64,000 bases of DNA from Candidatus Latescibacterota bacterium (GTDB lineage Bacteria > Latescibacterota > UBA2968). The translations under genes were made by a program, and so were the position numbers. The notes beneath the pieces were generated by a model. It made no database searches. It was not told where the DNA came from and worked only from the letters and a program-made list of their open reading frames with translations. Below, one piece after another: positions 18,137 through 27,183 of the stretch. Every line of letters starts with the position of its first letter. Position 1 is the stretch's first letter. The stretch is taken from NCBI GenBank assembly GCA_965208125.1, contig OZ242320.1:5024001-5088000 (forward strand), given 5' to 3'.

Positions 18137-18323
18137 CCTCACCACTAAAAGCTCAACTCGGCTTTTGCCGCAGCAATTAAAGCCACCCAAATCAATTTTT
18201 TTTATTTTTTCTTTTTCCATTTGATTGTAACCCAATCTTCACTCGCGCTTAATACCATAGAAACAATGATACCTTATTTTTATGTGTCATTATTCTGCGT
18301 CTCGTTCAGCAAGGAGTTGGATT

Positions 18324-19172
18324 ATGGTCAACGCCTCATCTAAACAATCAGATATCAGTCTCGAATACTACCTCAAAGAACTCTCCCATTCTCACCCCCT
18401 CTCTGCAGCAGAAGAATTTGAACTCGCCGTCAAAATGAAGCGCGGTAACCTCAAAGCGCGCAATCGCCTGATCAAAGCCAACCTGCGTTTTGTGGTCAAC
18501 GTGGCTCTGAAATACCGCAATCAAGGCGTGGCCCTGGCCGATCTGATCAGTGCTGGCAATATTGGCCTCATCACAGCTACCGAACGATTTGACGAAACGC
18601 GCGGTTTCAAATTTATCTCGTATGCTGTCTGGTGGATTCGCCAGTCTATTTTACAAACGCTCGCCGAACAAGGACGCATGATCCGCTTGCCCATCAACAG
18701 ACTGGATATGCTGCGTCGGATTAAAAATTTCAGCGATCAGTATCAGTGCAATGAAGGCCGCATGCCTACAGAGGCAGAAATCGCCAATGAATTTCACATC
18801 ACCGAAGATCAGGTCAGCGATATGCTGTCTCACAGCCCGATCGTATTTTCTCTGGACAAACCGATTCAGGACGAAGATACAACCCTCATCGATTTGATGC
18901 ACGACGAAGATCAGGCCCCACCAGATGCTGCTATGTTTCACAATGCCCTGAGAGATGAAGTCAACGACCTGCTCCATACCCTGGATAATCGTGAAGCCGA
19001 CGTTATCCGTCTCTATTTTGGTCTCGATGGTTCCAGTTGGACACTTCAGGCCATAGCCAACAAATATAGCCTCACGCGCGAGCGCGTGCGCCAAATCAAA
19101 GAAAAAGCCCTGCGCAAATTGCGTCACCCCTCTCGGGGACGCAAGCTCATTGCGTATGCAGAAGCCAGCTAA
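18324..19172 (+). CDS. RpoD/SigA-family sigma factor lacking region 1.1
   Basis: ANLRFVVNVA, DLISAGNIGL, GFKFISYAVWWIRQSI, LTRERVRQIKEKAL; RBS AAGGAG before ATG 18324. Confidence 0.93.
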   Translation: MVNASSKQSDISLEYYLKELSHSHPLSAAEEFELAVKMKRGNLKARNRLIKANLRFVVNVALKYRNQGVALADLISAGNIGLITATERFDETRGFKFISYAVWWIRQSILQTLAEQGRMIRLPINRLDMLRRIKNFSDQYQCNEGRMPTEAEIANEFHITEDQVSDMLSHSPIVFSLDKPIQDEDTTLIDLMHDEDQAPPDAAMFHNALRDEVNDLLHTLDNREADVIRLYFGLDGSSWTLQAIANKYSLTRERVRQIKEKALRKLRHPSRGRKLIAYAEAS

Positions 19173-19193
19173 CGCATTATCTGATAAAAAATG

Positions 19194-19232
19194 AAAAAGC
19201 CTTTGAAGCGCATATCTTCAGAGGCTTTTTTT
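19194..19232 (+). terminator. Rho-independent terminator
   Basis: aaaaagcctttgaag-cgcatat-cttcagaggcttttttt. Confidence 0.8.
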
Positions 19233-19250
19233 AATATCTAACGCCAAAAC

Positions 19251-19279
19251 TTGATTTGTCTGAGGTTGTTATGTACATT
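19251..19279 (+). promoter_or_regulatory. Putative sigma70 promoter of the nitroreductase-dsrMK-desulfurase-dsrC operon
   Basis: TTGATT-17 nt-TACATT immediately after the sigma-gene terminator. Confidence 0.5.
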
Positions 19280-19322
19280 GCTGTACATTTCCTTTTTATC
19301 GAGACCCTACAGGAGGCAAGCG

Positions 19323-19892
19323 ATGGACGTTTTGGAAGCTATTCACACGCGGCGCACAATTTTTAAGTTCAAACCGGGTGGTGTGCCCAAAGATGTGATT
19401 GAAAAAACTTTTGAGGCCGGTCTATGGGCGCCCAATCACCATTTGACAGAACCATGGCGATTTGTAGTCCTGGGAGAAGAAACCAAAGAAATACTGGCGC
19501 AACGCTACAGCGAAATTCAGGAAGAAAAAGCGGCTGAAAGTGCCAGCGACGAGGCCAGGCGCATATTAAAAGAAGCCGGTTATGCCAAGTTCATGTCAAA
19601 GCCCACAATTATTGCAGTGGCCTGTTTGCAAGATGGCGATGAGATCAAGAATAGAGAAGATTATGCGGCCGCGTGTTGCGCCATGCAAAATGTACAGTTG
19701 GCTGCCTGGGCAGAAGGGGTTGGCATGCAGTGGAGCACGGGGCCGATCACGCTGGAAGAAAACACCTACAAATTGTTGGGTGTAGATACCGAGACCGAAT
19801 ACATCATCGGATTTTTCTATACTGGATATCCCGATGAGATTCCAGAACCGAGGCGCAAACCCCTCGAAGAGGTGCTGAGCTGGACGGATTGA
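19323..19892 (+). CDS. Nitroreductase family flavoprotein (YdjA-like)
   Basis: AIHTRRTI, WAPNHHLTEPWRF, QNVQLAAWAEGVG; RBS AGGAGG before ATG 19323. Confidence 0.88.
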   Translation: MDVLEAIHTRRTIFKFKPGGVPKDVIEKTFEAGLWAPNHHLTEPWRFVVLGEETKEILAQRYSEIQEEKAAESASDEARRILKEAGYAKFMSKPTIIAVACLQDGDEIKNREDYAAACCAMQNVQLAAWAEGVGMQWSTGPITLEENTYKLLGVDTETEYIIGFFYTGYPDEIPEPRRKPLEEVLSWTD

Positions 19893-20722
19893 TTCCGCTA
19901 ACCATGAATGGCTTTGAATTTTTTGTTCTCTATCGCCTGCCCTATTTCGCATTGCCTTTTTATTTCATCATGTTGGGCGTGCGAATATGGGTGTGGATGC
20001 GGTTTTACAACCCCGCGCTCAAGCTATTGCCACGAGCCAGGGGATCTGTATATGGCGTGTGGAAGCAGCAGTACCGGCCAACCATCCACATTTTTCCCGG
20101 ATCGCGCTCACAAAGCACAGAATGGAAGCGCGCGATAAAGGGCTTTGTTTTCTTTACCGGTCTCTATAAGCGAGATAAAATACTATGGCTGGGGTCCTGG
20201 TCGCTCCATTTAGGGCTATTCCTGGTAATTGTTGCCCATGTCCGCGTGATTTTGCCGCTTGACCTGGACCTGACCTGTTTACGCGTCGCATTGATCGGCA
20301 GTGGACTGATGACAGTGTCGGGCACTTATTTGTTGCTGCGTCGAATAATCGTTCAGCGCGTGCGGGAAATTACGGACTTTCGGGACTATCTGGCGGAACT
20401 CATCCTCCTGTTCTTCTCTGCGACGGCATTTCTCGTCGTATTATATGGTGGCGTGTCATCTGAAGTCTTGCGCCACTATGTGTCTGGCCTATTGACGGGC
20501 ACAACGACAGTTATTGAAGTACAACTCATTTTTGTCTGGCACATGCTCGCTGCACAGCTCTTATTGATCGTGATCCCATTTTCCCATCTATTGCATCTGG
20601 GGGGAATTTTTTTGAGCCGCGAATTTTTGGGCACATCCGATACATTTGCAGGGGAATTTGGATCGGGATTTTCAGGATTAAAGGATGAACAAGATGAAAA
20701 ACCACTAACCACTAACCACTAA
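19889..20722 (+). CDS. DsrM-like membrane di-heme cytochrome b (NarI family)
   Basis: Multiple TM helices; four His (WSLH, VAH, VWH, LLH); LLLRRI..RVREIT; IPFSHLLHLGGIFLS resembles the DsrM C-terminal motif. Confidence 0.8.
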   Translation: MIPLTMNGFEFFVLYRLPYFALPFYFIMLGVRIWVWMRFYNPALKLLPRARGSVYGVWKQQYRPTIHIFPGSRSQSTEWKRAIKGFVFFTGLYKRDKILWLGSWSLHLGLFLVIVAHVRVILPLDLDLTCLRVALIGSGLMTVSGTYLLLRRIIVQRVREITDFRDYLAELILLFFSATAFLVVLYGGVSSEVLRHYVSGLLTGTTTVIEVQLIFVWHMLAAQLLLIVIPFSHLLHLGGIFLSREFLGTSDTFAGEFGSGFSGLKDEQDEKPLTTNH

Positions 20723-20727
20723 CCACT
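20660..20727 (+). repeat. 9-mer GGAT repeats followed by (AACCACT)x4
   Basis: ggatcgggattttcaggattaaaggatgaacaagatga, then aaccact x4 at 20700-20727. Confidence 0.75.
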
Positions 20728-22094
20728 TGAGAATCAGAAAATTGGAAAAGCCAGATCAAATAGAACGAGAGAAAAAATACATTCCAACAGGCCTGGTTGG
20801 CACGTATATGCGGCGCATTGCCGAATCGGATCCGTTTGTCCGCGAGATCCAGGATGAACCATCGGCATTGCGTTTGTACATGGATACGTGTACCAAATGT
20901 GGGGTGTGCGCGCAGGAATGCCCGGTGTATTACGGGCAGCCCGATAAGCGTATGCATCCGGTGGAACGCTCTCGGCAAGTGATTCGTTTATACAAAAAGT
21001 ACACGACATTTTGGGGGCGATTTTGGAATGCCATTTTTCCAAAACCAGATTTCGAAAATAACGATGCCGAGTTATTTGCCGAGCGCATGTACGAGTGTCT
21101 GACGTGTCGGCGGTGTGCGGCATTTTGTCCTGTGGGGATCGATCATTCGGTGATCTCGCGCGTTGGACGCTCGCTTGTCGATTTAATGGGTTTGACGCCG
21201 CCATCCCTTGCACAGGGCACGCACAATTCGTTTGAAACAGGCAATTTGGAAGGCGCGTCAGCCGAGGCATTTTTAGATGCGATTCAATTTATCGAAGACG
21301 AACTCAAGGAAGAAACGGGACGGGATATTGCCATTCCCTTAGACCGCGAAGGCGCGGAAATTTTCTTTTTGCCACCGTCTGGCGATGTGCTGGTTTATGC
21401 TGAAAATTTAATGGGCATGGCGAAAATTTTTCACGCCATCGGTGCCGATTGGACGATGAGTTCGCGGGCATTTGACGGATCGAATTTTGGATTTACGACC
21501 GGCAATAACTTTTCAATGAAATACGAGAACAAGCACTACATCGACGCGTGCGAAAATTTGGGATGTGAGCTTCTGGTAATGGGTGAATGCGGGCATGCGT
21601 ATCGGGTGATGAAGTTTATGGCCAGCGAAGGACGCTGGTGGGGCGCATTGCCTTTTGAGATTACCAGTGGCTTTGAATATACGGCACAACTTATTCGCAC
21701 AGGCAAATTGAAATTAGATCCGGGTAAAAATCCCGATCCCGTGACCTATCACGACGCCTGCCAATTTGCTGCCGGGTGTGGGATTGTCGAGGAACCCAGA
21801 GCGATTTTAAAAGCTGCCTGTGCCGATTACCGCGAGATGCCCGATGGCGGATATACGCAGTGGTGTTGCGGTGGTGGCGGTGGGTTATCGGCTCTGCGCT
21901 CGGTGCGCGCGTTTCGGATGGAGGTCTCGGGCAAAAAGAAAGCAGAGCAAATGCGCGAGACCGATGCGAAAATCGTATCGACCTCGTGTTTGCAGTGCCG
22001 CACACAACTCAAAGAAATCGCGCGCCATCACAAAATGCCACTAAGAATTACGGGTGTACACGAGTTGGTAAACAATGCGATTGTACTGGAATAG
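20727..22094 (+). CDS. DsrK-like heterodisulfide-reductase-type Fe-S protein (HdrD family)
   Basis: CTKCGVCAQECP, CLTCRRCAAFCPVGID, PSGD, GECGHAYR, TYHDAC, CCGGGGG, CLQC; start codon uncertain (TTG). Confidence 0.85.
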   Translation: MRIRKLEKPDQIEREKKYIPTGLVGTYMRRIAESDPFVREIQDEPSALRLYMDTCTKCGVCAQECPVYYGQPDKRMHPVERSRQVIRLYKKYTTFWGRFWNAIFPKPDFENNDAELFAERMYECLTCRRCAAFCPVGIDHSVISRVGRSLVDLMGLTPPSLAQGTHNSFETGNLEGASAEAFLDAIQFIEDELKEETGRDIAIPLDREGAEIFFLPPSGDVLVYAENLMGMAKIFHAIGADWTMSSRAFDGSNFGFTTGNNFSMKYENKHYIDACENLGCELLVMGECGHAYRVMKFMASEGRWWGALPFEITSGFEYTAQLIRTGKLKLDPGKNPDPVTYHDACQFAAGCGIVEEPRAILKAACADYREMPDGGYTQWCCGGGGGLSALRSVRAFRMEVSGKKKAEQMRETDAKIVSTSCLQCRTQLKEIARHHKMPLRITGVHELVNNAIVLE

Positions 22095-22104
22095 CCGATA
22101 GCTC

Positions 22105-23322
22105 ATGTCTCATTTAATTTACATGGACAACGCGGCGACGACGTTTCCAAAGCCCCCTACTGTGCTGGAAGACGCGCTGGCGTTCTATCGAAAATACGGG
22201 GTAAACCCCGGGCGCAGTGGCACAGATCTGGCGAGAGAGGCCGAGGATATGGTTGCCGAGACGCGGGCATCGCTCGCTTCGTTTTTTGGCGCCACGGGCA
22301 GTCCCGATCGGCTTGTGTTTACACACAATGCCTCGGATGCGCTGAATATTGCGATTCAGGGCACGTTGAAATCCGGCGATCATGTAATTACAACATGTCT
22401 GGATCACAATTCGGTTTTGCGCCCGATTTACCATCTCTCAAAATACGAGGGAATTGAGGCGACTTATGTGGGCTTTGGGACAAATGGCTTTATCGACCCG
22501 GAGGATATTGCCAGGGCGATCAGGCCAAACACAAAACTCGTAGTGATGACCCATGCATCCAATGTATTGGGCACTGTGCAACCCGTAGCGGCAGTCGGCG
22601 CGATCTGCCGCGCACGCGGCGTAATTTTCTGCGTTGATGTGGCGCAAACAGCGGGCATGTTGCCCATTGATATGGAGGCGATGCACGCCGATATTCTGTG
22701 TTTTACCGGCCACAAGTCACTCATGGGACCAACGGGTACTGGTGGGATGTACGTGCGCGAAGGCGTGACAATTGCACCGTTGCGATACGGCGGAACGGGT
22801 GTGCGGTCGGAGTATCCCGATCACCTCGACGAGTATCCCTGGCGGTTGGAGTGTGGCACGGGCAATCTGATGGGCATTGCGGGGTTGTTATACGCGCAAA
22901 AATGGATGCTACGAGAAGGCGTGAAAAATATTCATGCACGCGAGATGGCTTTGTTTAAACAACTGGTCAATGGTCTGCACGAAGTCGATGGGACCATTTT
23001 GTATTGCGCTGAAAATCACGAACAACACGTGCCAGTATTGTCGGTCAATATCGAAGGGATGACAGCAAATAATGTGGGTACATTGCTGGATGTGAAGTTC
23101 AATGTGGCAACGCGCACGGGGTTGCTATGCGCGCCAAAGGTACATGAAACCCTGGGCACGAAAGCATTGAAGGGTACGGTGCGCCTTTCGTTGGGTCCCT
23201 TCAATACTGAAGCACAGATTGAGACTGTGATCGAAGGCTTGAGCGATATTTCCCAACGGCACGGACGACGCGATGTACAATTGCACCAGCAGGTAAAAGG
23301 TCAGGTGCGGAATGGCGTATGA
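22105..23322 (+). CDS. Class V PLP cysteine desulfurase / selenocysteine lyase family protein
   Basis: YMDNAATTFPKP, HNSVLRP, HASNVLG, FTGHKSLMGPTGTGG, RTGLLCAP active-site Cys. Confidence 0.9.
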   Translation: MSHLIYMDNAATTFPKPPTVLEDALAFYRKYGVNPGRSGTDLAREAEDMVAETRASLASFFGATGSPDRLVFTHNASDALNIAIQGTLKSGDHVITTCLDHNSVLRPIYHLSKYEGIEATYVGFGTNGFIDPEDIARAIRPNTKLVVMTHASNVLGTVQPVAAVGAICRARGVIFCVDVAQTAGMLPIDMEAMHADILCFTGHKSLMGPTGTGGMYVREGVTIAPLRYGGTGVRSEYPDHLDEYPWRLECGTGNLMGIAGLLYAQKWMLREGVKNIHAREMALFKQLVNGLHEVDGTILYCAENHEQHVPVLSVNIEGMTANNVGTLLDVKFNVATRTGLLCAPKVHETLGTKALKGTVRLSLGPFNTEAQIETVIEGLSDISQRHGRRDVQLHQQVKGQVRNGV

Positions 23323-23635
23323 GATTGTGACGTTGGGCGGCAAAGAAATTGAGGTGGATGAGGATGGGTTTATCCAACAGCCCGAGCGTTGGGACGAAGA
23401 TGTGGCGCGCGATCTGGCCCGGCAAGATGGTATTGAAGAGATGACCAAAGATCATTGGCAGGTAGTGTATTATATCCGCAATTATTGGTTGAAATTCGAA
23501 ATCGCTCCATTGATCCGCCGCCTGTGCAAAGAGACAGAGAAAGATATCGATACGATTTACGATCTGTTTTCCGCAGGTCCTGCAGATGGCGCGTGTAAAA
23601 TCGCGGGTTTGCCAACGCCAACGGGGTGTACGTGA
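23312..23635 (+). CDS. dsrC: DsrC/TusE family sulfur carrier with both C-terminal Cys
   Basis: DEDGFI, HWQVVYYIR, DLFSAGPADGACKIAGLPTPTGCT (C-X10-C). Confidence 0.88.
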   Translation: MAYEIVTLGGKEIEVDEDGFIQQPERWDEDVARDLARQDGIEEMTKDHWQVVYYIRNYWLKFEIAPLIRRLCKETEKDIDTIYDLFSAGPADGACKIAGLPTPTGCT

Positions 23636-23651
23636 CCGATAAAAATAAGTA

Positions 23652-23694
23652 AAAAAAATGAGGCGATTCCAATAGGAAATCGCCTCATTTTTTT
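23652..23694. terminator. Bidirectional rho-independent terminator
   Basis: aaaaaaatgaggcgatt-ccaatagga-aatcgcctcattttttt. Confidence 0.9.
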
Positions 23695-23709
23695 AAGCTT
23701 CAATCAACT

Positions 23710-24606
23710 CTATCCCGTACGCGCTTGAATATTCGACATATCTTCAATAACCGTGAGCAAACCCGAGTGGTCAAGTTCGCCGCGGCCTTTGACCATTGCG
23801 GTCTTGAAAAGTTCAAAAACCTCGCTGGTAACGGGCAAGGGCACGTCGAAATCATTACTCGTTTTCTGGATGATATTGAGGTCTTTGTAGTGCAGGCGAA
23901 TGCGAAAGCCGGGATCAAAATCGCCATTGACCATGCGCTCCCCCCTGTTTTCAAGTACACCGCAGCGCGCAAGTCCCCCACTGAGCACTTGAACGATTTT
24001 GATTGGATCAACGCCCGCTTTAGTCCCCATTGTGAGGGCTTCTGATACGCCAGCAATGGTGACAGCAACGAGAATTTGATTGCACGCTTTCACGGTTTGC
24101 CCCGCGCCGAGAGGTCCACACAAAATCGCACTTTGGCCCATAACGTCAAAGAGCGGTTTGACCGTGTTGAAAGTATCTGCATCGCCGCCAACCATAATGG
24201 AAAGAGTGGCGTTTTGAGCGCCGATGTCGCCGCCACTGACGGGTGCATCGAGGCTTTGAACGCCTTTTTCTGAGAGCACCTCCCCCACCTGTGTGGTGAC
24301 ACTGGGTGCAATCGTGCTCATATCGACGAAAATCAGACCTTCGTGCGCACCTTCAATAATCCCGCCTTCGCCCAAAGCGACACTCTTAACATCGGGCGAA
24401 TCGGGCAACATAGTGATAACAATATCGCTTTGTTCCGCCACCTCTTTGCCAGAGTGCGCTTCTACTGCTCCTTTGCCGACGAGTTCATCAACCGCATCTC
24501 GATTGCGGTTGTGTACGACGAGTTCATATCCGGCATCTATTAAATGACCGGCCATCGGCTTGCCCATAATCCCGAGACCGATAAACCCAATTTTTGGCTT
24601 CGACAT
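23710..24606 (-). CDS. garR: 2-hydroxy-3-oxopropionate (tartronate semialdehyde) reductase
   Basis: IGFIGLGIMGKPMA, DAPVSGG, GAGQTVKACNQ, LHYKDL. Confidence 0.85.
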   Translation of the reverse strand: MSKPKIGFIGLGIMGKPMAGHLIDAGYELVVHNRNRDAVDELVGKGAVEAHSGKEVAEQSDIVITMLPDSPDVKSVALGEGGIIEGAHEGLIFVDMSTIAPSVTTQVGEVLSEKGVQSLDAPVSGGDIGAQNATLSIMVGGDADTFNTVKPLFDVMGQSAILCGPLGAGQTVKACNQILVAVTIAGVSEALTMGTKAGVDPIKIVQVLSGGLARCGVLENRGERMVNGDFDPGFRIRLHYKDLNIIQKTSNDFDVPLPVTSEVFELFKTAMVKGRGELDHSGLLTVIEDMSNIQARTG

Positions 24607-24681
24607 GTGTTAAATCCCTTTCAATAGATAGTTTCTCTTTTTCTGCGGTCAGCGATAAATATAATCGCTTTTAAAGATTTT

Positions 24682-25605
24682 CTACAATTTCTTCAACTCT
24701 GCAAGCGAGGGAAAGGCGTGGCGTTCCCACACCCGCACGATCACCCCATCCACGATATAAGCCAGCCGCGGGTACCCATGCCCGTGGGTCAAACGCTTGA
24801 AATCAGCGAGAGAAATTGTAGCGATGGTAAAACGCGGTCGGAACTGCATTTTGAATTGCGCGGTCACGGGATGATCTTTGGGATACTGGCTCAAAGCAAT
24901 TAACCTGGGCACCTCTGGATCGGCAGCCCAGACATTGAGCTTGGGCACGGCGACCTGGCAATAGTGACAACTTGGACTGAACAACTCAATCAGATAGGCT
25001 CCCCGCGTCAAATCGATGTTCGTATCTAGCAGGGATAACCCTTTCAGATAATCACCCACCTGCAAGTCTGAATCAACCATCCGATCGCGCTCGGGCATAT
25101 ATCGAAAACCCAGTACGGTTAGAGAAACCAATCCCCCGACCAGGACCACCCATCGTCCCCAGACCCATAGCGCAACAGATCGTCGCCGCAGACCCCACCA
25201 AGAAAAGACCAGCAACCCCAGCATGAGAAAATTTTCCACCATCGCTTCACTCGGCGATCGATCGACCAGAGTGCCAAAACACCCGCAACTCTCCCCCATT
25301 CCCCGATGTAAGGCATGGGCGGTAATCGCAAGAAAAAAAACCATCATCACCACACCTATAGGCAAAACGAGACGCGGCTTCCAATCGACCAGAAGCGCGA
25401 AACCCACCATACATTCCAGCGGACCGAGCAACAGAGCCAATTTGGCGACCATTTCCACTGTCTCGCGCCCGACAAAAATTTGGGCAGGCATCATAGCCTC
25501 CCAAAAAAAGAGCACGGGATCCCATATCTTAGCCAGGCCAGCCACCAGAAAAACCACACCCATAATCCGCTGGCTTATCCACAAGCTCTTTTCTAATCTA
25601 TTCAT
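24682..25605 (-). CDS. MauE/DoxX membrane protein fused to a thioredoxin-like domain
   Basis: TM helices, GLAKIWDP, SCGCFG, C-terminal FSPSCHYC and YPR. Confidence 0.75.
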   Translation of the reverse strand: MNRLEKSLWISQRIMGVVFLVAGLAKIWDPVLFFWEAMMPAQIFVGRETVEMVAKLALLLGPLECMVGFALLVDWKPRLVLPIGVVMMVFFLAITAHALHRGMGESCGCFGTLVDRSPSEAMVENFLMLGLLVFSWWGLRRRSVALWVWGRWVVLVGGLVSLTVLGFRYMPERDRMVDSDLQVGDYLKGLSLLDTNIDLTRGAYLIELFSPSCHYCQVAVPKLNVWAADPEVPRLIALSQYPKDHPVTAQFKMQFRPRFTIATISLADFKRLTHGHGYPRLAYIVDGVIVRVWERHAFPSLAELKKL

Positions 25606-25619
25606 AGCTGTATCCTCTT

Positions 25620-26450
25620 TTAGCTCACAAACAACGGTTGATCGGATCTCGGTACAATACCCGCTTCTTCTGCTCGATCAAAAAGATCGACCAGCGCAGT
25701 CTCGCCATCTGCGCCATAATCCAACGTGTATTCATTGACGTAGAGATCGATGTGTTGCTGCATCACGGATTCGTCCATCTCCTGCGCATGCTCGCGGATA
25801 TAATTTTTAACTTCATCGGGATTTGAATGTGCATATTCCACACTGGCACAAAGAGATACATCAATCTGTTGAATTATTTCTACGCCGAGATCGCGTCGGG
25901 CGAGAATACCCCCAAGCGGAATGGGATGTCCCGTAGATGCCTCCCACCATTCGCCCAGATCAATGACTTTGTGCAAACCATAATCGGGATAGGTAAATCG
26001 CGATTCGTGGATGATCACGCCCGCATCGACATCGCCTTTTTGCGTGGCCCCCATAATCTCGTGAAAAGGCATCGCCACGAGGTTGTCAAGCGCGGGATTA
26101 AAGAGGCGCAACAAGAGCGCGGCCGTAGTGAGTTTGCCGGGAATGGCGATGCGTTTGTCCAACAGATCGCGCGGATCAAGGGCGTCAGCCGCGACAACGA
26201 GCGGGCCACACCCGCGTCCCAATGCCCCCCCCGAATGCAGCAGACAATACCGGTCACGCATAAATGCGAGCGCGTGGAATGATATTTTGGTCATATCCAA
26301 TTTACCTGCCATAGCCATGCGATTCAGGGTCTCGATATCCTCGAGAATCTCGCGGCATTGGGGTGCGCCATCTATTTTTCCATGAACCAGACCGTAAAAA
26401 ATATATGTGTCATTAGGACAGGGGGAATAACCGAGAGAAATACGGGACAT
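25620..26450 (-). CDS. mqnD: 1,4-dihydroxy-6-naphthoate synthase
   Basis: LGYSPCPNDT, DIETLN, GALGRGCGP, IIHESRFTY, DLGEWWE, HIDLYVNEY; start placed at 26450. Confidence 0.95.
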   Translation of the reverse strand: MSRISLGYSPCPNDTYIFYGLVHGKIDGAPQCREILEDIETLNRMAMAGKLDMTKISFHALAFMRDRYCLLHSGGALGRGCGPLVVAADALDPRDLLDKRIAIPGKLTTAALLLRLFNPALDNLVAMPFHEIMGATQKGDVDAGVIIHESRFTYPDYGLHKVIDLGEWWEASTGHPIPLGGILARRDLGVEIIQQIDVSLCASVEYAHSNPDEVKNYIREHAQEMDESVMQQHIDLYVNEYTLDYGADGETALVDLFDRAEEAGIVPRSDQPLFVS

Positions 26451-26463
26451 GGTGAACCTCGTG

Positions 26464-27183
26464 TCATAGAGCCTCAATGAATTTTCGCGCTGCAATTTGC
26501 ACCCTCTGGGCAGCGCGTGGAATATCCCAGGAGTCTTTATTGCGGTCTTCCACGCGATTGCTGATAGCGCGCAATTCGAGAAATGGAACCTCATAGAGCT
26601 TACAGATATGCGCCGCAGCCGCGCCCTCCATATTTTCACATATCGCATTGAACCGCGCTGCCAGTTCATTGCCAATATCCTCGCGTCCTGTACATTGTTG
26701 CACCGTAACAAAAGGACCTTGCACAACGCATTCGCCCAATTGCTCGAGTATGTGTTGCGCTCTGGCGACAAGCGCGGGATCGAGAGAATACGTATTGTAA
26801 TAATCGCGATCTGTTGACAGGACGGGAATGCCAATCTCATCAGCAGGAGACCAGCCAGCAGGTGTGATAATGCCTAAATCTCCATAATTTTCTTCAGTCG
26901 CAAGTGCAAGACCGCCTTTATCCAGGCCACTACCGAGATAAGCACCACCAATGCCGATTTGCAGAACGAGTTCGGGATCGATTTCTTGCAGTGCAACAGT
27001 CAGCGCCTGCGCTGTATTGACTGCTCCAATACCCGTTTCAAGCAGGACAACGGGTCTGATGCCAATCATACTGTGAACCCAGGCGCGATGCCCCCTGCGC
27101 TGTGTTGTCATCTGTTGAAGGCTATCGCGCAAACGCTGTTGCTCATAGGCTGTAGCTGTCAGGATGAGCAGAGTATCGGGCAT
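26464..27183 (-). CDS. mqnB: Futalosine hydrolase
   Basis: TGIGAVN, GIGGAY, ENYGDLG, ENMEGAAAA, ELRAISNRV; adjacent to mqnD. Confidence 0.9.
   Translation of the reverse strand: MPDTLLILTATAYEQQRLRDSLQQMTTQRRGHRAWVHSMIGIRPVVLLETGIGAVNTAQALTVALQEIDPELVLQIGIGGAYLGSGLDKGGLALATEENYGDLGIITPAGWSPADEIGIPVLSTDRDYYNTYSLDPALVARAQHILEQLGECVVQGPFVTVQQCTGREDIGNELAARFNAICENMEGAAAAHICKLYEVPFLELRAISNRVEDRNKDSWDIPRAAQRVQIAARKFIEAL

Follow-up and report, generated by a model that had tools for sequence, protein, structure and literature searches.

A cysteine desulfurase operon with a DsrMK-like pair and two-cysteine DsrC in Latescibacterota without DsrAB: a candidate route from cysteine sulfur to sulfide

Introduction

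DsrC and DsrMK are regarded as components, and used as markers, of DsrAB-based dissimilatory sulfur metabolism. A carrier of the DsrC/TusE family is also fed by a cysteine desulfurase in the Escherichia coli relay IscS–TusA–TusBCD–TusE–MnmA, and in the HdrDE of methanogens a membrane cytochrome b and a CCG subunit reduce a disulfide-type substrate with a membrane carrier. DsrK has been compared with HdrDE (PMC10861901; preprint 10.64898/2026.08.25.746951). Within the Dsr system, DsrMKJOP is an established menadiol:DsrC-trisulfide oxidoreductase from which sulfide is released (PMC10861901), and DsrABCMK has been given as the minimal pathway set (PMC10504309). This study concerns a five-gene operon at 19323-23635, on the plus strand, of a 64,000-nucleotide stretch (the window; positions 5,024,001 to 5,088,000 of contig OZ242320.1, assembly GCA_965208125.1) from a Candidatus Latescibacterota bacterium, in which a DsrMK-like pair is followed by a cysteine desulfurase and a DsrC. 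An earlier note on this DNA had read the operon as a DsrMK–DsrC module, with a desulfurase in the place of DsrAB that loads cysteine sulfur onto DsrC. The reading preferred here, on which our confidence is evenly balanced for and against, is that of a DsrAB-independent, self-contained module that would carry cysteine sulfur to sulfide with membrane quinol.

Results

Conservation of the operon in a lineage without DsrAB

Five co-directional open reading frames were confirmed on the plus strand, each adjoining the next by a gap or overlap of no more than 11 nucleotides (nt), much as the earlier note had described them. They encode, in order, a nitroreductase-family flavoprotein (19323-19892; 189 amino acids (aa), PF00881), a DsrM/NarI-like dihaem cytochrome b (19889-20722, or from an alternative ATG start at 19904; PF02665), a DsrK-like Fe-S subunit with Fer4 and one CCG domain (20727-22094; 455 aa), a cysteine desulfurase of the EF2568 type (TIGR01977) that depends on pyridoxal phosphate (PLP) (22105-23322; 405 aa), and a two-cysteine DsrC (23312-23635; 107 aa, PF04358). 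The first two genes overlap by 4 nt, or are separated by 11 nt if the ATG at 19904 is used; this ATG is the start in relatives and is likely the true one. The remaining junctions are a 4-nt gap between the DsrM-like and DsrK-like genes, a 10-nt gap between the DsrK-like and desulfurase genes, and an 11-nt overlap between the desulfurase gene and dsrC.

Across 23 Latescibacterota loci, the order DsrM-like, DsrK-like, desulfurase, DsrC was found in 21, the other two being contigs that end inside the cluster, and it recurred in all three metagenome loci of this type that had enough downstream DNA. The linkage of the desulfurase, a check named in the earlier note, is conserved. Of the five-gene order that the note had asked to be compared in genomes lacking dsrAB, these four genes keep their places and the position of the nitroreductase varies.

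The phyletic survey covered 168 genomes of the phylum, 30 of them in the family of the window. A DsrK-like gene was found in 28 of the 30 and elsewhere only as two weak matches (28-29% identity), DsrC in 27 of the 30 and in 6 genomes elsewhere, and the TIGR01977 desulfurase in 27 of the 30, with one sub-cut-off match elsewhere. By genus, all three genes were present in 20 of 20 genomes of g1, 3 of 3 of g3, the single genome of g4 (1/1) and 3 of 3 of g5, and in neither of the 2 genomes of g6; the sole discordant genome (G062, genus g2, 82% complete) has a contig that stops within the DsrK-like gene. The module is absent from families f2 (0/22), f3 (0/3) and f4 (0/76). Only 1 of the 168 genomes, from another family, contained dsrA over its cut-off, with none among the 30 (0/30). 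This pattern shows that the DsrK-like protein, the desulfurase and DsrC are inherited as a unit, without DsrAB. A genome from another family (G014) contains DsrC (C63:20845-21144) and a TIGR01977-like desulfurase (C318:25696-26811; 367 bits, near the cut-off) on different contigs, and no DsrK-like match was found in it at E 1e-20.

The host genome is a single contig of 5.75 Mb and is 96% complete. Searched as a whole, it gave best matches of 33 bits to dsrA (cut-off 393) and 38 bits to dsrB (cut-off 341.5), no gene of the DsrE/DsrF/TusD family (PF02635) and no TusA, which extends to the whole genome what had been said of the window, namely that dsrAB, dsrEFH and tusBCD are missing. No dsrJOP genes flank the operon, although no family search for them was made genome-wide. 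There is one DsrC and one DsrK-like gene in the genome. As no DsrAB exceeds its cut-off, the genome does not qualify for the Dsr pathway of sulfite reduction or sulfur oxidation.

The sole dsrAB-type matches came from a protein of 742 aa (C1:3446241-3448469) in which two NIR_SIR domain pairs were recognised. It raises the alternative that the operon serves this or another sulfite-reducing or sulfur-producing enzyme, with the desulfurase a mere neighbour, and in other phyla the DsrMK-like pair does occur beside dsrAB (locus L146) or beside a canonical dsrC-dsrMKJ set (locus L152). We regard this as very unlikely: the gene for the 742-aa protein lies 1.6 Mb from the operon, and the desulfurase shares the phyletic pattern of the module, has a gene that overlaps dsrC by 11 nt, and is modelled as binding DsrC (see below). 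No use of DsrC is known, moreover, for assimilatory-type sulfite reductases.

The desulfurase, DsrC and their predicted contact

The DsrC of the operon matched PF04358 with 115 bits and TIGR03342 with 111 bits (cut-off 53.5), whereas its score against the TusE equivalog NF008562 was 77 bits, below the cut-off of 191. Both cysteines of the C-terminal arm, C95 and the penultimate C106 (C-X10-C), were found unchanged in all 41 sequences compared, and the arm aligns with those of the canonical DsrC proteins of loci L152, L028 and L029. Outside its own clade, its nearest relatives are ordinary DsrC proteins of 105 aa, with 58-68% identity. Judged by these features, the protein is DsrC proper of the ordinary two-cysteine type, and the reading of the earlier note, by which both C-terminal cysteines are retained, stands.

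The desulfurase matched Aminotran_5 with 294 bits and passed the TIGR01977 cut-off (422 bits against 377); its PLP lysine (K204) and catalytic cysteine (C342) are invariant in 45 of 45 sequences, in agreement with its earlier description as a PLP desulfurase. Other desulfurase genes in the genome comprise a SufS within a suf cluster and a NifS/IscS-like gene, and the operon enzyme would therefore be a third, dedicated one. With a short DsrMK-like pair, an ordinary two-cysteine DsrC and a TIGR01977 desulfurase, the operon looks like a mosaic of three parts.

The TIGR01977 family includes the selenocysteine lyase model SclA (NF040779), the second-best match of the desulfurase, which would fit a selenium relay, an option that the earlier note had also entertained. 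In such a relay, the enzyme would be a selenocysteine lyase, DsrC would carry selenium, and the DsrMK-like pair would free selenide for SelD, for which the genome has a gene with an in-frame TGA (C1:1005559-1006482). The SclA score of 329 bits is, however, well short of the cut-off of 525, and selD lies about 4 Mb from the operon. The co-distribution test gave no support either, with SelD present in 133 of the 168 genomes regardless of the module, including 22 of 22 genomes of f2 and 71 of 76 of f4, both of which lack the module. The selenium option was accordingly given up as very unlikely. One in-frame TGA occurs in the SelD of nearly all Latescibacterota searched, which fits a selenocysteine-containing SelD and widespread use of selenium.

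A complex of the desulfurase dimer with one DsrC was modelled, with a separate alignment for each protein. Three runs gave a score of 0.66, whereas the highest of 3 controls reached 0.01. The mark for such models is attained by 58 of 80 solved complexes and by 2 of 110 mismatched pairs, a calibration from which our runs differ in having alignments of our own and two copies of the desulfurase. Contact agreement among the runs was at least 75%, and the predicted local distance difference test (pLDDT) of the partner was at least 86. The predicted interface comprises residues 320-331 and 385-386 of one desulfurase chain and 39-44 of the other, which face residues 67-92 of DsrC. DsrC is thus placed at the dimer interface of the desulfurase, beside the Cys342 loop, with its arm beginning directly after the contact patch. 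The model supports binding between the two proteins, a partnership that the earlier note had put forward.

Such a contact would also suit a biosynthetic relay, in which DsrC loaded by the desulfurase would, in the manner of TusE, deliver persulfide sulfur to an enzyme that thiolates tRNA, a cofactor or a metabolite, and the DsrMK-like pair would only rescue oxidised DsrC. DsrC and TusE belong to one family (TIGR03342), the genome has neither TusA nor TusBCD and could need another relay, and an aerobic-capable host fits a housekeeping role. Set against this, the DsrC misses the TusE equivalog and keeps both arm cysteines, like a redox-cycling DsrC; no thiolation enzyme is encoded within the operon; the absence of the module from most of the phylum would be odd for a core route; and the tight coupling to a quinone-linked reductase is left unexplained. 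On this balance a biosynthetic relay is considered unlikely, although it has some claim.

The DsrM-like and DsrK-like pair belongs to a short paralogue family

The DsrM-like protein passed the cut-off of the NarI family (PF02665; 43 bits against 22.9). Its best NCBIfam match was DsrM (NF038037), at 44 bits against an equivalog cut-off of 300. Four histidines (H102, H112, H213 and H231, numbered from ATG 19904) are shared by all 11 aligned proteins of the DsrM type, two of them canonical. Similarly, the best NCBIfam match of the DsrK-like protein was DsrK (NF045796), at 311 bits against a cut-off of 400. Its two CxxCxxCxxxCP motifs, PSGD, GECGH and CCG are invariant in 23 of 23 family members, and the cysteines of the CCG domain (C345, C380, C381, C421 and C424) are kept.

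GECGH contains C288 and H290, which are kept in each of the 12 sequences aligned, 3 canonical DsrKs among them, and match the C329/H331 pair of Archaeoglobus fulgidus DsrK. The latter is described, from the DsrMKJOP structure, as strictly conserved and probably catalytic (preprint 10.64898/2026.08.25.746951). The same preprint names as features of DsrK one CCG/non-cubane cluster site, a non-ligating cysteine with a histidine two positions on, and an acidic residue (D500) in place of a supernumerary cysteine. E446 of the window protein aligns with Asp or Glu of the others and would be the equivalent of D500, in an alignment made without the A. fulgidus sequence. A search of a copy of the PDB returned no DsrK chain, only the CCG domain of 9ojn_A (E 8.6e-12).

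Canonical DsrKs for comparison were taken from loci that also carry dsrC, dsrN, dsrA or dsrJ (L152, L028 and L029). These scored 664, 468 and 469 bits, respectively, against NF045796, and the window protein shares 32-35% identity with them. Ten closer homologues (50-81% identity, nine of them about 50%) scored 324-383 bits, all under the DsrK cut-off of 400. A great many homologues share about 50% identity with it, the few source names given being KSB1, Zixibacteria, Planctomycetota, Deltaproteobacteria and Pseudomonadota, and Atlas clusters of DsrK-like proteins are commonest in Bacteroidota and Ignavibacteriota.

A phylogenetic tree of DsrK proteins was constructed from 95 rows by a quick search, with SH-aLRT support only. 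The desulfurase-linked clade (11 rows, support 100) has a long stem, with 1.22 changes per column, and is nested within a family of short DsrMK-like paralogues (89 rows, SH-aLRT 96; 47-54% identity), its exact sister being weakly supported (82). The three canonical DsrKs form a group of their own (support 98), so that the phylogeny proposed in the earlier note places the window protein outside the canonical DsrK clade. From scores and tree together, the pair is best classed as a member of a distinct, short DsrMK-like paralogue family and not as canonical DsrMK. The label "DsrMK" given to it earlier is corrected accordingly; the haem histidines and the Fe-S and CCG motifs are kept, both subunits fall below their equivalog cut-offs and the clade is noncanonical. 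Neukirchen et al. describe a basal clade, 'DsrMK only', to which this short family may correspond and for which 7 of 74 bacterial assemblies are given as without DsrAB (PMC10504309).

The usual partners of this family were surveyed in 73 metagenome loci of the clade at about 50% identity. Where the upstream DNA was long enough, a DsrM-like gene stands before the DsrK-like gene in 53 of 58 loci. The pair is in turn preceded by a DsrC-like gene in 42 of 51, and a MerR/HTH_17 regulator is often first in the cluster. The upstream DsrC-like proteins have the terminal cysteine only in 42 of 46 cases and no end cysteine in the other 4; C-X10-C was found in none. The DsrK-like gene is often followed by one for a protein of about 217 aa with a double DsrC-like domain, which has a cysteine at the CysB-type position and no terminal cysteine. 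The two DsrC cysteines thus seem, in this clade, to be divided between an upstream and a downstream protein (L081-L153; e.g. L148:5745-10136 and L129:1268-5324). In L146, the short pair stands beside DsrA, DsrB and a DsrN-like gene. In L152 (3857-11020), canonical dsrC-dsrM-dsrK-dsrJ are followed directly, with no dsrOP between, by a short M-like/K-like pair and a siroheme-synthase-like gene. A recurring three-gene set was also seen near DsrMK-like loci (L089:3120-6105, L106:11735-14992 and L137:2513-3741); it encodes a protein with a Macro domain, one of about 230 aa that is membrane-bound and without a Pfam family, and a CCG protein of about 580 aa that is HmcF/TmcB-like (324-335 bits, below the cut-off) with a C-terminal extension.

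Menaquinone and respiratory genes of the host

Futalosine-pathway menaquinone genes lie 2.0-3.5 kb downstream of the operon, in line with the mqn genes that had been noted about 2 kb away. They are MqnB (TIGR03664, 221 bits against a cut-off of 125) and an MqnA/MqnD-family gene (25665-26441; PF02621, 274 bits). A 406-aa reading frame listed for the latter on the minus strand (25620-26840) shares 377 nt with the MqnB gene (region 25620-27183). As PF02621 covers only 25665-26441, the real start of the MqnA/D-family gene is probably near 26450.

The host also has a haem-copper oxidase and is therefore not an obligate anaerobe. With menaquinone genes and an oxidase both present, the module could be imagined to run in the oxidative direction, the DsrK-like protein oxidising a DsrC persulfide, as has been proposed for sulfur oxidisers, and passing electrons through menaquinone to the oxidase, with the oxidised sulfur going to an unnamed acceptor. 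Dsr proteins do run in reverse in sulfur oxidisers (PMC10504309). The genome has no rDsrAB, DsrEFH or DsrL-type partner to take on a DsrC trisulfide, however, and such a trisulfide would be a dead end; we hold this direction to be distinctly improbable.

Transcription unit, nitroreductase and selection

Upstream of the operon lies a sigma-70-family gene (18282-19172), which is closed by a plus-strand hairpin with a T-run at 19193-19231 (-19.7 kcal/mol, z -5.57; none of 200 shuffles was as stable). This hairpin marks the 5' limit of the operon transcription unit. On the other side, a palindromic hairpin with a 19-pair stem and A/T runs on both sides occupies 23652-23694 (-25.9 kcal/mol, z -8.32; again, none of 200 shuffles was as stable). 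It can act as a terminator both for dsrC on the plus strand and for a convergent gene on the minus strand beyond it, which is of the 2-hydroxy-3-oxopropionate-reductase type; the strong terminator reported here earlier was thus found again. The promoter-like site reported with it did not hold up. That site (TTGATT-17 nt-TACATT, 19251-19279, plus strand) matches the consensus at 8 of 12 positions. A promoter scan, which gave 5 sites, fewer than the mean of 7.0 for shuffles, did not include it. As a sigma-70 promoter it is weak and was set aside as unsupported; the phylum may use other promoter types.

The nitroreductase matched PF00881 with 95 bits and reached no NCBIfam equivalog (best PRK10828, 81 bits against 183). 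Among the 23 loci, its gene abuts the DsrM-like gene in 14 and is absent from 1; the spacing between them is 116-327 nt in 4 loci and 1.2-3.1 kb in another 4. In three of the four loci with the longest spacing (L020, L021 and L019), an opposite-strand PhyH-family gene stands between the two, an arrangement recorded for L075 as well. It was rejected as a core part across the family. Its earlier inclusion in the operon is apt for the window's genus, where it is the first gene and may be co-transcribed, whereas in other genera it is a loose neighbour.

Comparison with the relatives L004, L015 and L018 gave dN/dS values of 0.05-0.06 for the nitroreductase, 0.12-0.18 for the DsrM-like protein, 0.04-0.06 for the DsrK-like protein, 0.09-0.13 for the desulfurase and 0.04-0.09 for DsrC. 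By this measure all five genes (0.04-0.18) are under purifying selection.

In contigs of relatives, the C-terminal tail of the desulfurase lacks 24 nt (window 23269-23294), and the junction between the DsrM-like and DsrK-like genes (window 20670-20759) is replaced by 22 other letters. The desulfurase has 389 aa in most relatives, and its tail overlapping dsrC, as well as the intergenic joints, varies even among close kin. A 307-aa protein (24682-25605, minus strand) combines a MauE/DoxX-like membrane domain (PF07291) with a CxxC motif in its C-terminal part, is weakly BT_3928-family-like, and is kept beside the operon within the genus; from these features it may be a membrane thiol-disulfide protein.

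The region 18200-24700 was compared with contigs of RNA libraries from four runs of two studies, which come from relatives and have no silent-stretch control. Two runs each contain a contig of 12-13 kb, about 90-95% alike, that spans 19294-24624 across genes on both strands, and two further runs contain only short contigs, 159-534 nt long, which fall on the genes for the nitroreductase, the DsrM-like and DsrK-like proteins, the desulfurase and the downstream reductase. Carry-over of DNA is possible, and neither expression nor co-transcription is claimed from these contigs. The records of the runs are of sponge metagenome, which is a weak hint at habitat.

Discussion

From gene content, conserved residues and the complex model, we infer a route in all its chemical steps, in the direction of electron flow and in its physiological purpose, as follows. 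The desulfurase would convert L-cysteine to L-alanine and hold the sulfur as a persulfide on Cys342. DsrC, docked beside the Cys342 loop, would accept the sulfane sulfur on its terminal Cys106; Cys95 would then resolve the Cys106 persulfide, so that sulfide leaves and DsrC is oxidised, either as a disulfide or as a DsrK-bound sulfur intermediate. The DsrK-like protein would re-reduce DsrC at its single non-cubane [4Fe-4S] site with electrons from menaquinol, which would be oxidised at the dihaem DsrM-like anchor. Net, cysteine and menaquinol would yield alanine, H2S and menaquinone, in the service of an electron sink under anoxia or of a controlled supply or removal of sulfane sulfur. The re-reduction of DsrC is modelled on the menadiol:DsrC-trisulfide activity of DsrMKJOP (PMC10861901), and the quinol step draws also on the open, NarI-like quinol site described for the DsrM of DsrMK-only complexes (preprint 10.64898/2026.08.25.746951). 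Menaquinone for the cycle could be supplied by the futalosine-pathway genes that are present.

Several points weigh against this route. Desulfurase–acceptor complexes of other kinds have been solved (IscS–TusA and SufS–SufE/SufU), and in our model the C-terminal arm of DsrC itself lies outside the confident contacts. Both subunits of the membrane pair miss their equivalogs. In the wider short family, none of 43 loci has a desulfurase directly downstream and only 2 of 73 have one anywhere, and the usual partner is a DsrC-like protein with one cysteine, so that DsrC-trisulfide chemistry is not simply transferable. What speaks for the route is that in those two metagenome loci (L089 and L129), which are unrelated, the desulfurase is again of the TIGR01977 type. 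The surveyed genomes are kin, and the shared pattern may therefore rest on a single gain. With a haem-copper oxidase in the host, an anaerobic electron sink is not obviously needed. Finally, the redox potential of oxidised DsrC is described as unknown, and it may be energetically unfavourable for menaquinol to reduce sulfane sulfur (PMC10861901).

Taken as a whole, the interpretation offered in the earlier note is partly supported: it fared well in the genomic checks and gained a modelled contact between desulfurase and DsrC, and it lost canonical DsrMK, the selenium option and the nitroreductase as a core part. A more specific form of the preferred reading would be a quinol-driven 'cysteine sulfane reductase', in which cysteine is the terminal electron acceptor (cysteine + 2e- + 2H+ -> alanine + H2S) and DsrC the catalytic sulfur shuttle; this is put forward tentatively and is rather doubtful. 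If it were true, DsrC/DsrMK-type machinery would have a life apart from sulfite reductase, and aerobic-capable heterotrophs, present in sponge samples on weak evidence, would produce sulfide from a source so far unrecognised.

Under the broader reading of a DsrAB-independent module, DsrC could be charged straight from cysteine, and matches to dsrC or dsrMK in metagenomes could not be read as sulfate or sulfite reduction or as sulfur oxidation. There may also be an unrecognised, quinone-linked production of sulfide from organic sulfur. The operon would furthermore offer a simple three-protein system for the question of how a single non-cubane cluster of the DsrK type treats protein-bound sulfane sulfur, which is left open for the canonical complex (PMC10861901; preprint 10.64898/2026.08.25.746951).

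No title or abstract describing an operon of DsrC, DsrMK and a desulfurase was found among open full text, a coverage outside which subscription papers and the supplements of PMC10504309 fall. Compared with the E. coli IscS–TusA–TusBCD–TusE–MnmA relay, the operon is without TusA and TusBCD, its DsrC keeps the second arm cysteine, and there is a membrane redox partner. Compared with HdrDE, it has one non-cubane cluster site instead of two and would act on a protein-bound sulfur substrate. With the short DsrMK-like paralogue family it shares the CCG, GECGH and histidine features of the pair, whereas the DsrC-like protein of that family is encoded upstream and has the terminal cysteine only; here a two-cysteine DsrC and a desulfurase follow the DsrK-like gene. 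Another close system is that of DsrC with a two-subunit DsrMK ('DsrM-1' type, preprint 10.64898/2026.08.25.746951; basal clade, PMC10504309), with which the operon has in common a NarI-like dihaem anchor, an HdrD-like subunit with one CCG domain, the Cys-x-His pair, a two-cysteine DsrC and no adjoining DsrJOP. It differs from that system in that there is no DsrAB to make the trisulfide and a cysteine desulfurase takes the place of the sulfur supplier. The operon is thus made of known parts with a new partner, the desulfurase replacing DsrAB, in a distinct gene order and with a divergent DsrK clade, within a Latescibacterota lineage that is capable of aerobic life.

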